A stretch of DNA of 64,000 nucleotides from an uncultured Candidatus Saccharibacteria bacterium (GTDB lineage Bacteria > Patescibacteriota > Minisyncoccia > Phycocordibacterales > UBA9973). Position numbers and translations under genes: made by a program. The stretch is taken from positions 53,641-117,640 of the forward strand of contig CAYODR010000001.1 of the NCBI GenBank assembly GCA_964402895.1, in the 5' to 3' direction. Each line of letters opens with the position of its first letter. The first letter of the stretch is position 1. Below are positions 18,141 through 50,691 of the stretch, one piece after another. Below the pieces are notes generated by a model. It did not search any database, was not told the DNA's origin, and was given only the letters and a program-made list of their open reading frames with translations.

Positions 18141-18232
18141 TGGAATGGAGGACTTATCCGTGTCTAAAAATAGGAATGTATTTTGAAGCATATAGTGTTT
18201 GTTTGTAATAATATAAATGTTATAATAGTTTT

Positions 18233-19018
18233 ATGAAAAAATTAACCAACCTTTCAAAAAGTCTAATAGGAGGGTGCTATTCTAAAAAGAATCTCTCCGC
18301 TCTGAACAAATCCAAAGCTTTTACTTTGATTGAACTTCTTGTAGTAATAGCAATCATTGGAATATTAGCTACAGTGGTCATTGCATCTTTAAACTCAGCT
18401 CGCACTAAAGGAAGAGTAGCCGCTATTAAGTCCAATCTAAAGAATTTTCAGACTCAGGCAATAATGTACCATGCAGACAATGGGACTTTTGCTGGACTTT
18501 GTACATGGGTAGCACCATCTACTATTCAAACAGGTTATCATTCATCAGTTGAACCAATGATAGATGCTCTTAAGAATATTGCAGGAGATGAGAATGTACG
18601 CTGTGTTGTTCGTACTTCAAATGTTCCTAGTACTTCAGCTACACACTTTGTTGCAGCAGATGGACTTCAAGATAAAAATTTTGGTGTAGCAGTCTGGTTC
18701 AAAGGAAACCACTACGCTGTTGATGCTCAAAGCGTAATGACACTTGATTCTGCAAACAATGGTGCAGAAACAAACTGGGCTGAAGCAAATAATAGATGTG
18801 CTGCAGCAGGAAAGAGACTTCCCCCAATCGAAGTCTTTAAAGCCATATATGACTATAGTAGTACTGATGTAACTCAGTATGGGTTTGCAGCTAACCTTTG
18901 GTGGTCATCTACCCCTTCCGCTACCGAGTCCAGTATGGCTTATGCACAGAGTTTCACTAATGGTAATGTGAATAGGGGCGCTACTGTTCTTAACTTCCCC
19001 GTTCGTTGTGCCGCCTAG
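18233..19018 (+). CDS. type IV pilin-like protein (prepilin-type N-terminal methylation domain)
   Basis: A(F)TLIELLVVIAIIGILATVVIASL class III signal after an unusually long leader. C-terminal Cys pair (CAAAGK…VRCAA). TATAAT at 18213-18218 only ~15 nt before the ATG. Confidence 0.8.
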   Translation: MKKLTNLSKSLIGGCYSKKNLSALNKSKAFTLIELLVVIAIIGILATVVIASLNSARTKGRVAAIKSNLKNFQTQAIMYHADNGTFAGLCTWVAPSTIQTGYHSSVEPMIDALKNIAGDENVRCVVRTSNVPSTSATHFVAADGLQDKNFGVAVWFKGNHYAVDAQSVMTLDSANNGAETNWAEANNRCAAAGKRLPPIEVFKAIYDYSSTDVTQYGFAANLWWSSTPSATESSMAYAQSFTNGNVNRGATVLNFPVRCAA

Positions 19019-45543: not shown

Positions 45544-45624
45544 GTCATTATTGTAGCACTTTTTGAGATCTCTCGCAGAAATAGAGTATTTCCAAAATAG
45601 CCTTATTTTTGGTATGATACCAAC

Positions 45625-46608
45625 ATGAATTCCACAAACAAATCCACAAGAAAGAGATTGGTGTCTGGTGTAAAACCTACGGGCCGTATACATATAGGAA
45701 ATTATTTTGGGGCTATTAAAAACTTTATTGAGATGCAAAAAGATTATGAAGCTTTTATTTTTATTCCCAATCTCCATGCTTTAACTGAAAATACTTTATC
45801 TCAAAAAGAGATTAAAGACTTTACTTATAATGCAATATTGGATTATCTAGGCGCAGGACTTGATCCAGAAAACTCTGTTTTCTTTAAACAGTCAGATGTA
45901 CTTGCTCATGCAAATCTTGCTTGGGTATTTAACTGTCTTGTAACTGTGCCATATCTAATGCGTGCACATGCTTATAAAGACGCTGAAAACAAAGGAAAAG
46001 AGGTTACTGCTGGAACTTTCACTTATCCAGTACTTATGGCATCAGATATTCTTTTATACGATGCAGATGTAGTACCAGTAGGGCAAGACCAAAAACAACA
46101 TGTAGAATACGCTAGAGATATTGCTCAAAAATTTAATAATCAATACAGCGAATTATTTAAACTTCCAGAACCTATAATCCATCAAAATACTGGTATCACC
46201 CCAGGTACTGACGGCAGAAAAATGTCAAAAAGCTATGGTAATACCATTCCACTTTTTGGAACAGATGAAGAAATCACTAAAGCTGTGATGAGTATCACCA
46301 CAGACTCAAGGGGAAGAGATGAAGAAAAAGATCCAGAAAGTATTATTCTTTATCAAATCCATAGATTATTTAACGATAGTGAAGATTTAAAAACTCAGTA
46401 TAGTAAAGGGCTTGGCTACGGCGATGCTAAAAAGATGCTCATACAAGAAATCATAGATTATGTGACACCTATGCGTGCTAAGAGGTCATACTATGAAAAA
46501 AATCCTGAAATAGTCAGAGAAATACTTGTAAAAGGCGCAATGAAAGCAAATGATATAGCTATGAAAAAACTTTTTGAAGTATATGAAGCTGTAGGACTTA
46601 CGATTTAA
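45625..46608 (+). CDS. trpS: tryptophanyl-tRNA synthetase
   Basis: HIGH-type (GRIHIGNYFG), KMSKS. Confidence 0.9.
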   Translation: MNSTNKSTRKRLVSGVKPTGRIHIGNYFGAIKNFIEMQKDYEAFIFIPNLHALTENTLSQKEIKDFTYNAILDYLGAGLDPENSVFFKQSDVLAHANLAWVFNCLVTVPYLMRAHAYKDAENKGKEVTAGTFTYPVLMASDILLYDADVVPVGQDQKQHVEYARDIAQKFNNQYSELFKLPEPIIHQNTGITPGTDGRKMSKSYGNTIPLFGTDEEITKAVMSITTDSRGRDEEKDPESIILYQIHRLFNDSEDLKTQYSKGLGYGDAKKMLIQEIIDYVTPMRAKRSYYEKNPEIVREILVKGAMKANDIAMKKLFEVYEAVGLTI

Positions 46609-49047: not shown

Positions 49048-49104
49048 GAAACAGAGTTTTTGGATTATAAGAGGTGCATAGCGCACCTCTTTTTTATTTC
49101 CATT

Positions 49105-49262
49105 TTTCTGCTACACTGAAAGAGTATCCGTTTAGACTTATGATCTGCTGACAACAGGGAAGTTGAAATGAGAGACAAAGAGACAAAAGTAGGGTGGCAC
49201 CGCGATGAATAATCGCCCCTGCGAGCTTAACAATTAAGTTCGGAGAGGTATTTGTCTCTCCT
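49105..49262 (+). promoter_or_regulatory. T-box riboswitch leader, Asp specifier (GAC), upstream of aspS
   Basis: Conserved T-box core AGGGTGGCACCGCG at 49191-49204. Antiterminator GCG-augaauaau-CGC-CCCU. The UGGC bulge is complementary to a tRNA-Asp 3' end GCCA. Candidate specifier GAC-A at 49150-49153; AGAGUA motif in stem I. Competing helix CCCCUGCGAGCUU/AAGUUCGGAGAGG. Confidence 0.6.
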
Positions 49263-49272
49263 GTCTAAAACT

Positions 49273-50691
49273 ATGGAAAGAATATATATAAAAGATTTAA
49301 ATACAAAAAAAGGAGAAGAAATCCTTATTAAAGGTTGGGTGGACGTACGCAGAGATCAGGGGAAAATGGTTTTCTTTGATTTTAGAGATATGTCTGGGTA
49401 TATACAAGGTGTTGTACTTCCTAATAGACCTGAAGTCATTGAAGTAGCTAAAAATACACGCCCTGAAAGTGTGGTCGCTGTACACGGTATCGTAAATCAA
49501 AGACCAGAAAGAAATGTACAAGCCGATAAACAAAATGGTGATATTGAACTTGAAATCACTGGTATTGAAATACTGAACCACGCAGAACCGCTTCCTTTTG
49601 AAATCAATGTAGACACAAAAGAAGTAAATGAAGAAGTTCGACTTAAGCATAGATATCTAGACTTAAGAAGTGAGAGAATGCAAAAAAATATCAGAGCAAG
49701 AGCATCTATCGTTCATCATATTCGTAATTTTTTGCATGAAAATAAATTCATTGAAATAGAAACTCCTATCCTAACAAAAAGTACGCCTGAAGGCGCTCGC
49801 GACTATATCGTACCTAGTCGTATTTATCCTGGTAATTTCTATGCACTCCCACAATCACCTCAACAATATAAACAACTTTTGATGACTGGTGGTATGGAAA
49901 GATATTTCCAAGTAGCTAGATGTATGCGCGATGAAGATACTCGCGGTGATAGACAACCAGAATTCACTCAACTAGATATGGAAATGAGCTTTGTCCAAAG
50001 AGAAGATGTGATGCAAATGAATGAAGAGCTTTTGATAAGTATCGTCAAAACTTTTTATCCTGAAAAGAAAATCCAACAAATCCCTTTTCCAAGACTTTCA
50101 TATAAAGAAGCGATGGAAAAATATGGATCAGATAGACCAGATATCAGAGAAGATAAAAATGATCCAAATTTACTAGCATTTTGTTGGGTGATAGATTTTC
50201 CTTTCTTTGAAAAAACTGATAAAAGTGATAATCCTGATGGAGAAGGAGAGTGGACATATACACACAACCCATTTTCAAAACCAGTAAACGAACATATGCA
50301 AAATCTACTTGAGAAAAAAGATATAGGAGATATCTTAACAACTCAATATGATATTTGTTTAAATGGATATGAAATAGGCGGGGGGTCAATTAGAAATCAT
50401 AGTTATGAAGCATTGATGAAAGTATTTGAAATCCTAGGACATAAACAAGATAAGATAGAATCAGAGTTTGGGCACATGCTAAATGCTTTCAGGCTTGGTA
50501 CACCACCACACGGGGGTATTGCATGGGGATTAGATAGGTTTGTGATGCTAATGCAAAATGAACCAAATATCAGAGAGGTGATAGCCTTCCCAAAAACAGG
50601 TGAAGGCAAAGACCCGATGATGAATGCTCCTGCTAAAGTATCAGACAAACAACTGGCAGAACTTCAAATAGCTTTGAAAATAAAAGAGTAA
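49273..50691 (+). CDS. aspS: aspartyl-tRNA synthetase
   Basis: OB-fold N-domain, class II motifs (FQVARCMRDEDTRGDRQPEFTQLD, GGGSIR, GLDRFVM); ATG at 49273 (the track start at 49252 is TTG). Confidence 0.9.
   Translation: MERIYIKDLNTKKGEEILIKGWVDVRRDQGKMVFFDFRDMSGYIQGVVLPNRPEVIEVAKNTRPESVVAVHGIVNQRPERNVQADKQNGDIELEITGIEILNHAEPLPFEINVDTKEVNEEVRLKHRYLDLRSERMQKNIRARASIVHHIRNFLHENKFIEIETPILTKSTPEGARDYIVPSRIYPGNFYALPQSPQQYKQLLMTGGMERYFQVARCMRDEDTRGDRQPEFTQLDMEMSFVQREDVMQMNEELLISIVKTFYPEKKIQQIPFPRLSYKEAMEKYGSDRPDIREDKNDPNLLAFCWVIDFPFFEKTDKSDNPDGEGEWTYTHNPFSKPVNEHMQNLLEKKDIGDILTTQYDICLNGYEIGGGSIRNHSYEALMKVFEILGHKQDKIESEFGHMLNAFRLGTPPHGGIAWGLDRFVMLMQNEPNIREVIAFPKTGEGKDPMMNAPAKVSDKQLAELQIALKIKE

Follow-up and report, generated by a model that had tools for sequence, protein, structure and literature searches.

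A putative T-box riboswitch of reduced architecture in the leader of a Patescibacteria aspS gene

How is the aspartyl-tRNA synthetase gene aspS controlled in a bacterium of the candidate phyla radiation (CPR), and could a T-box riboswitch do this with several of its usual parts missing? The question is raised by a 64,000-nt stretch of an uncultured Candidatus Saccharibacteria genome (assembly GCA_964402895.1, contig CAYODR010000001.1, positions 53,641 to 117,640), the whole of which was analysed and is called the window hereafter, with coordinates counted from its first letter. A first-pass annotation had proposed a T-box riboswitch with an Asp specifier in the leader of aspS (49273-50691, + strand). 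The gene, identified by NF001750 (629 bits versus a cut-off of 443), encodes a bacterial-type AspRS of 472 aa that starts at ATG 49273 with a conserved N-terminus (MER.YI.DL), matches the 590-aa NCBIfam profile in two stretches and lacks the GAD insertion domain; AspRS lengths are similar across all 80 CPR relatives retrieved (see below). We propose that positions 49125-49262 form a functional T-box riboswitch of reduced architecture that controls aspS, and would put the probability of this reading, judged from sequence, at roughly 0.75. That the leader is a T-box homologue is almost certain, and it very probably still senses tRNA. The proposal is carried by homology, a covarying secondary structure, the mutual exclusivity of alternative helices, the match between specifier and gene, and the terminators of related leaders.

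The sequence AGGGUGGCACCGCG (that is, AGGGTGGCACCGCG) at 49191-49204 on the + strand matches the conserved 14-nt T-box sequence AGGGUGGNACCGCG at all 14 positions; even when one mismatch is tolerated, no other GGTGGNACCNCG-type site occurs in the 64 kb. A short T-box motif (12-mer) had at least one match in 30 of 100 shuffles, so that the sequence alone is weak evidence. Pattern, fold and alignment to the Rfam T-box model RF00230 all place it in an antiterminator at 49191-49220 (+), composed of helix A1 (4 bp, AGGG 49191-94 with CCCU 49217-20), a 7-nt T-box bulge, UGGCACC (49195-49201), and helix A2 (5 bp, GCGAU 49202-06 with AUCGC 49212-16) closed by the loop GAAUA. This structure corresponds to RF00230 model positions 183-216 with a posterior of ~1.0, and the canonical antiterminator geometry and UGGC-bearing bulge described by the first-pass annotation are borne out. 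The UGGC, which could pair with a tRNA 3'-GCCA end, is found in every member of the family described below, with the T-box 14-mer perfect. Both tRNA-Asp and tRNA-Asn are expected to carry G73, which fits the invariant UGGC. At the base of A2, where a G.U wobble is usual, the window has G49202-C49216, and 30 of 32 family members (alignment A5) have a G-C pair there.

Upstream of the antiterminator, a parse common to about 50 related leaders defines an ultrashort Stem I at 49129-49170 (+). Its basal helix pairs 49129-38 with 49161-70, with one A.G mismatch, and leads into a predicted kink-turn (K-turn, GA motif) at the base of Stem I, with a C-stem, a 3-nt bulge (UAU 49139-41) and tandem sheared pairs (G49142.A49160 and A49143.G49159). 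Above the K-turn, U49144.G49158 and the pairing of CUG 49145-47 with CAG 49155-57 make a 4-bp helix that is capped by the 7-nt terminal loop CUGACAA (49148-54). Loop positions 3-5 are the putative Asp specifier GAC, with U at position 2 and the conserved 3' purine A behind it (specifier and purine, 49150-49153, +). Throughout the family the 5' GA of the K-turn is invariant, the 3' GA nearly so, the flanking helices covary, and the loop C-U-[G/A]-A-C-A is nearly invariant. Among 53 non-redundant leaders the specifier is GAC in 43 and AAC in 8, and an AspRS gene lies downstream of all of them. The loop follows the pattern of an anticodon loop (compare the tRNA-Val(GAC) loop UUGACGU in locus L064). 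Stem I is thus of the 'ultrashort' type, with the specifier in the terminal loop rather than in an internal Specifier Loop. The GAC-A specifier of the first-pass annotation stands, since GAC 49150-52 and A49153 fall in the loop of a covarying hairpin, and indeed in a loop of the Stem I fold, though not in an internal Specifier Loop of a long Stem I. The distal platform motifs of a long Stem I (AG bulge and distal loop) are absent from this one, which ends at the 7-nt specifier loop.

The comparison rests on 80 loci retrieved with an AspRS protein search (65-81% identity), nearly all from Patescibacteria metagenome-assembled genomes (labelled Paceibacterota, Nomurabacteria or 'Saccharibacteria'), and on 50 more from a metagenome scan with a pattern of the conserved core, AGAG...AAAGUAGGGUGGCACCGCG, giving 130 loci in total. 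The same T-box is found upstream of aspS in 16 of the 80 close relatives, and in the other relatives a -10 box lies a few bases ahead of the ATG; this patchy distribution implies repeated gain or loss. The closest proteins (L001-L003, 78-81% identity) belong to loci without a T-box. Family members share an extended -10, a basal helix, a K-turn, a helix of 3-5 bp and a terminal loop that is usually CUGACA(A). A covariance model (R1) seeded with 15 other minimal CPR aspS leaders, the window being excluded, matches the window at 49125-49220 over its full length (model positions 1-111 of 111) with 72.6 bits and E ~7e-16, and nothing beyond a 15-bit noise match was found elsewhere in the 64 kb. The seed for R1 was alignment A3, the MAFFT alignments A1 and A2 having misregistered the group with a 3-bp helix.

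Covariation was counted on a 32-sequence model alignment, from which long-linker relatives were excluded because the model misplaces their Stem I. Paired cells amount to 92.9% versus 82.6% in shuffles, and both partners vary in 10 of the 15 pairs. Compensatory changes occur in each of the 7 modelled pairs of Stem I, whereas the antiterminator helices A1 and A2 are nearly invariant and give little information on covariation either way. The covariation score is 0.307 versus 0.123 when shuffled, a value reached by none of 500 shuffles, in an alignment that is fitted to the model and thereby somewhat favours the structure. We nevertheless regard the signal as real, given the slid-partner controls (at most 0.081) and the variety of pair types (CUG/CAG, CCG/CGG, UCC/GGA, GUGG/CCAC, GCGA/UCGC). 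Homology and covariation over more than 50 related leaders, together with the identity of the downstream gene, thus uphold the assignment to an aspS leader.

The Rfam model itself is of less help. In a local scan RF00230 reaches 34.5 bits (E = 3.6e-6), with the antiterminator alone confidently aligned. The full-length alignment behind this score was discarded as misleading, its 'Stem I' being the terminator of the upstream gene (49066-49095), and on the leader only the match is reduced to 49187-49220 with 25.5 bits. The first-pass annotation had named RF00230 as the check on its claim; this check returns the antiterminator only, and the 34.5 or 25.5 bits fall far short of the gathering score of 93. 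The relatives tested that have the same Stem I type score 35-48 bits, all below the gathering score, and since every relative with this Stem I fails, the test is not informative for the ultrashort-Stem-I aspS family. The short-Stem-I model of TBDB was searched only in Actinobacteria and among Rfam-detected sequences (PMC7778990). With relatives at 35-48 bits, the family would be missed by Rfam-gathering and TBDB-style pipelines, and the known distribution of T-boxes is therefore underestimated. In a limited literature search we found no paper linking T-boxes to Patescibacteria or CPR, an absence that is no proof.

What sets the leader apart is the part between Stem I and the T-box sequence. 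It is reduced to a purine-rich linker of 20 nt, AGAGACAAAGAGACAAAAGU (49171-49190, +), that cannot fold into a hairpin because it consists of A, G and C only, with no internal U. The linker comprises AAGAG (49178-82), ACA (49183-85) and AAAG (49186-89), and includes a perfect tandem repeat of GAGACAAA (two copies, 49172-87). Stem II with its S-turn, the Stem IIA/B pseudoknot and the Stem III helix are all absent from the window leader. The purines that flank Stem III in the RRRxG-Stem III-AA motif (PMC7583486) are retained, and ACA stands where the hairpin would be. Related leaders show the corresponding frame as AAAGAG-[hairpin]-AAAGUAGGG: forms of middle length have the Stem III hairpin alone, long forms carry AGUAGAACUCUCCGU-type Stem II/IIA-B-like sequences, and Stem II S-turn, IIA/B and Stem III are present in some members (e.g. 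L041, L046, L086, L090). Sorted by the distance from Stem I to the T-box, 22 leaders have linkers of 21-29 nt, 12 of 34-57 nt and 19 of at least 67 nt, proportions that the pattern of the metagenome scan has biased towards short forms; among the 14 complete leaders of the unbiased genome set, 4 are minimal. The minimal form occurs in at least 22 distinct leaders, spread over at least three AspRS sub-clades that also contain longer forms. A natural pair without and with Stem III is provided by L126 (344-438) and L102 (183-302, minus strand), whose leaders are ~97% identical except for Stem III, a 25-nt hairpin with a GNRA loop that only L102 possesses (GCCUCGCU-GCGA-AGCGGGC).

The expression platform was recognised through homologous helices in relatives. 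The terminator-like helix T (49215-49249, +) pairs GCCCCUGCGAGCUUAA (49215-30) with UUAAGUUCGGAGAGGU (49234-49) through 9+2+3 pairs with C.A and G.G mismatches (~-16.5 kcal/mol), and because it uses the 3' strands of A2 and A1, it and the antiterminator are mutually exclusive. A degenerate U-tract follows, AUUUGUCUCU (49250-49259, +), with 5 U in its first 8 positions and a longest run of 3, versus 6-7 of 8 and runs of 4-6 in most relatives; helix T and its tail were not called by a terminator scan of the window. A competing helix that overlaps the 3' antiterminator strand and lacks a clean U-run (no more than three consecutive U) is what the first-pass annotation had described. In roughly 40 of 53 leaders the homologous helix reaches -19 to -33 kcal/mol, ends in ...GGCGAU and runs into U4-U6; most relatives, then, have a canonical intrinsic terminator where the window has T. 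The outer GCGAU pairing of T has been lost in the window, where the tail has decayed to UAUUUGUCU; the tail of L004 is similarly weak, and L127 is without a U-run.

Leaky transcription attenuation is the likeliest output in the window, although the point is not settled, and we lean slightly towards attenuation as the main one. The first-pass annotation had left the choice between translational control and a weak terminator: the weak terminator is favoured by the terminators of the relatives and by the near lack of Shine-Dalgarno (SD) sequences in this genome, and translational control is less so. Sequestration of an SD is unlikely because the genome is almost SD-less, an SD-like motif being absent in 35 of the 38 open reading frames (ORFs) of at least 200 aa in the window; GGAGAGG lies 24 nt from the conserved ATG. 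An extended -10 (TGnTAnnnT) ends 6-10 nt before the ATG in 12 of these 38 ORFs, against 0.7 expected (e.g. 45600-45627 for trpS, 24282-24309, 18208-18235), which indicates that leaderless mRNAs are common; they seem to be the norm, and aspS with its T-box a rare leadered gene. We also considered a translational T-box with TTG 49252 as the start codon and GGAGAGG as its SD, and rejected it on the conserved MER N-terminus, the out-of-frame TTG in L004 and the SD-less genome.

Two further pairings involve the region downstream of T. Hairpin H3 (49242-49261, +), defined by conserved complementarity between GGAGAGGU (49242-49) and GUCUCUCC (49254-61), joins the 3' strand of T to a CU tract past the U-run and cannot coexist with the base of T. 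Its pairing is kept by differing sequences within the family (GAAGAG:CUCUUC, UUGUAG:CUACAA, CCAAAAGG:UUUUUGG), cognate strands averaging -10.5 versus -7.9 kcal/mol for non-cognate ones, which none of 5000 permutations reached. Equivalents occur in L004, L035, L065, L083, L088, L116, L118, L122 and others, and in L081 and L127 the hairpin has grown to 10-11 bp. Because transcription reaches the CU tract only past the point of termination, H3 can have no part in the decision to terminate; it may fix the leader in its read-through conformation or cover the purine strand. No description of such a hairpin as part of a T-box expression platform was found in the literature examined.

The second pairing, predicted in the minimum free energy fold, is a long-range helix LR (49173-49266, +; 49173-77 and 49179-87 with 49251-59 and 49262-66) that would enclose the whole switch by pairing the GAGACAAA-GAGACAAA repeat with UUUGUCUC...UGUCU. 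Its duplex energy of -17.0 kcal/mol (z = -3.2) is reached by 0.3% of shuffles, and significance is confined to the window and L004, so that LR is specific to the sub-clade of the window. The tandem repeat offers two registers against 49251-49266, of which the terminator state uses one and the antiterminator state the other. With Stem I formed and no ligand, T plus LR (-44.2 kcal/mol) and antiterminator plus H3 plus AGACA/UGUCU (-43.0 kcal/mol) are nearly isoenergetic, and both states pair up to 49266, 6 nt before the ATG. The full-length leader looks bistable in these calculations, with no predicted difference in start-site access. A role of LR as a translational sequestrator was rejected on this shared, isoenergetic pairing of both states up to 49266 and on the lack of conservation beyond the window and L004.

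From these elements we infer as follows how the leader would bind tRNA, sense its charge and use its purines, and what level of output would result. The anticodon GUC of tRNA-Asp would pair with GAC, presented in an anticodon-loop-like 7-nt loop by the 4-bp helix above the K-turn. When uncharged, the 3'-GCCA end of the tRNA would pair with UGGC of the T-box bulge and stabilise the antiterminator A1/A2 against T. The single-stranded purine linker (RRRxG...AA) probably lines minor grooves, as in canonical T-boxes, and the switch would operate without the Stem I platform, Stem II, the IIA/B pseudoknot or the Stem III helix. With tRNA-Asp charged, T would form and transcription would stop at the U-rich tail; in the window, where the tail is decayed, termination is probably leaky.

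With canonical RF00230 leaders (e.g. Bacillus subtilis tyrS) the window leader shares the 14-nt T-box, the antiterminator with a 7-nt UGGN bulge opposed to a downstream terminator-like helix, the K-turn at the base of Stem I, and a specifier that matches the regulated aminoacyl-tRNA synthetase (aaRS) and is followed by a purine. It differs from them in having no long Stem I, S-turn Specifier Loop, platform, Stem II, IIA/B or Stem III helix, in the G-C instead of G.U at the base of A2, in its score (25-35 bits versus a gathering score of 93) and in its host, which belongs to the Patescibacteria and not to the Firmicutes. Closer in shape is the ultrashort (US) Stem I class (Sherwood, Grundy and Henkin 2015) as presented in bioRxiv 10.1101/2023.02.28.530422 and PMC7583486; the former describes it as ileS-only and translational, with the specifier in the terminal loop. 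These actinobacterial ileS leaders likewise have a short Stem I with the specifier in its terminal loop, no elbow platform and a retained K-turn. Yet they serve ileS, respond to tRNA-Ile and sequester an SD, whereas the window leader precedes aspS, carries GAC, has no SD at its ATG and has relatives with terminators; moreover, they keep and depend on Stem II, IIA/B and Stem III, none of which the subclass of the window has. The lack of Stem II and IIA/B and the short single-stranded linker between Stem I and discriminator recall the glyQS-type T-boxes, in which a strong GGC:GCC duplex rationalises the absence of Stem II; GAC:GUC also contains two G-C pairs. The glyQS type, however, keeps a long Stem I with an interdigitated T-loop platform and a Stem III that is reported indispensable for the discriminator. 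As far as its sequence tells, homology places the leader in the T-box superfamily, yet it lacks several features that count as essential or defining, namely the platform, Stem II, the Stem III helix, the G.U wobble and an Rfam score above threshold.

Several observations weigh against a functional T-box and have to be set beside this evidence. The Rfam scan of the window at the gathering score (93 bits) gives no T-box, which speaks for the suspicion that the leader is an ordinary 5' untranslated region with a chance T-box-like motif, as does the frequency of the 12-mer in shuffles (30%). This suspicion is effectively refuted by the 72.6 bits to an independent family model, the conserved synteny with aspS and the covariation. 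Weightier is the possibility that the leader is a T-box relic in decay, deprived of Stem II, Stem III and the U-tract, which reads through constitutively and leaves aspS effectively unregulated. The leader is present in only 16 of 80 close aspS relatives, most of which have a leaderless promoter directly at the ATG, so that the clade can do without it; the window and L004 have a weak U-tract and L127 has none; and the terminator of the window is the second-weakest of the set. A G-C pair, moreover, occupies the place of the A2 G.U wobble, which is described as the chief steric check on the aminoacyl group, Stem II is reported essential where Stem I is truncated, and Stem III is reported indispensable for tRNA binding by the discriminator, the antiterminator without it not binding tRNA appreciably (all PMC7583486). 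A leader without Stem II and Stem III might therefore bind tRNA too weakly. But a relic would not retain compensatory changes, and the 14-mer, the bulge, the K-turn G.A pairs and the specifier loop are invariant or covary across dozens of diverged minimal leaders. Most of these also keep strong terminators (e.g. L030, L035, L104, L118 and the L087 group), and a structured leader of 150 nt is costly in a genome that favours leaderless mRNAs. We consider decay improbable.

Two other alternatives accept the sensor and alter either its output or its ligand. The same T-box may act not through intrinsic termination but through translation initiation, RNA stability or Rho, with the CU tract re-paired between T plus LR and antiterminator plus H3. 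This would account for a U-run that is degenerate in the window and L004 and missing in L127 while every other element is retained, for the 10-11 bp of H3 in L081 and L127 and for the significance of LR in the window and L004; the near-isoenergetic ligand-free states are as in a thermodynamic switch, and in an SD-less genome local structure near the ATG should dominate initiation. Both states share the 3' boundary 49266, however, and predict no difference in start-site access; there is no SD to sequester, GGAGAGG being 24 nt from the ATG and the in-frame TTG 49252 unconserved; LR is unconserved outside two or three leaders; and terminators are clearly used by relatives. We regard an output of this kind as unlikely, though the most serious of the competing explanations. 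As to the ligand, neither the window nor the 130 fetched loci yielded a gene for tRNA-Asp or tRNA-Asn, which counts against the proposal, and a non-discriminating AspRS (ND-AspRS) might be monitored through tRNA-Asn, alone or along with tRNA-Asp. The loop reads CUAACAA in the leaders nearest to that of the window (L004, L081, L127), which hardly differ from it otherwise, L053 has the AAC loop ACUAACAA, AAC leaders precede an archaeal-type ND-AspRS in L084, L108, L119 and L128, the window itself reads GACAAC, and the G73 expected of either tRNA suits UGGC. Against this, the loop positions equivalent to 34-36 are GAC in the window, a second AAC would need C49155, which is paired in the helix, and a G-to-A change in the first base of the codon switches the specifier cleanly and leaves no ambiguity. 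AAC/GAC variation across the family fits a non-discriminating enzyme monitored through either tRNA, but for the window we consider tRNA-Asn as effector slightly less probable even than decay. The ND-AspRS of L084, L108 and L128 have 437-439 aa and are archaeal-type, their leaders keep Stem II, and their contigs, like that of L119, use SD sequences.

A functional T-box controlling aspS remains our preferred reading, and it bears on how T-boxes capture tRNA, which current structural models treat as multivalent: a long Stem I clamps anticodon and elbow alike, or Stem II and the pseudoknot make up for a short one, and Stem III is regarded as indispensable for recognition of the 3' end. A natural class lacking platform, Stem II and Stem III would define the minimal tRNA-sensing core. 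We see about an even chance that the window represents a widespread class of ~95-nt T-box sensors in Patescibacteria, built from four parts (K-turn, specifier hairpin, purine strap and T-box bulge) and with H3 in the platform. If so, the Stem I platform, Stem II/IIA-B and Stem III would all be dispensable in nature and the G.U sensor replaceable by G-C, and the minimal leader would be a very small target for structural work and for the engineering of tRNA-responsive switches. The aspS leader combines an ultrashort Stem I of actinobacterial type with a terminator-type platform and a new amino-acid class, and the contigs of L084, L108, L119 and L128 make clear that the ultrashort Stem I is confined neither to CPR nor to the minimal form. 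T-box regulation would also extend to the candidate phyla radiation, where to our knowledge almost nothing is known of gene regulation, and flips between GAC and AAC would allow one to tell from sequence if the AspRS of a CPR bacterium takes part in the Asn pathway.

The surroundings of the leader are those of a separate transcription unit, since the upstream gene ends in an intrinsic terminator of its own that was called by the terminator scan (49069-49099, +; hairpin 49069-49091 plus T-run). A putative extended -10 promoter, TGCTACACT (49109-49117, +), predicts a transcription start near 49123-49125. Elements of the form TGnTAnnnT stand at the equivalent place upstream of Stem I in relatives (TGCTATAGT, TGGTATAGT, TGGTATTGT), and the extended -10 is the usual promoter type of this genome. 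A sigma-70 candidate, CTGAAA-17-TATGAT (49116-49144), was set aside because its start would fall inside the conserved Stem I; the extended -10 agrees with the relatives and is preferred. The second aaRS gene of the window, trpS (45625-46608), has no T-box, and its ATG lies 6 nt after a -10 box.

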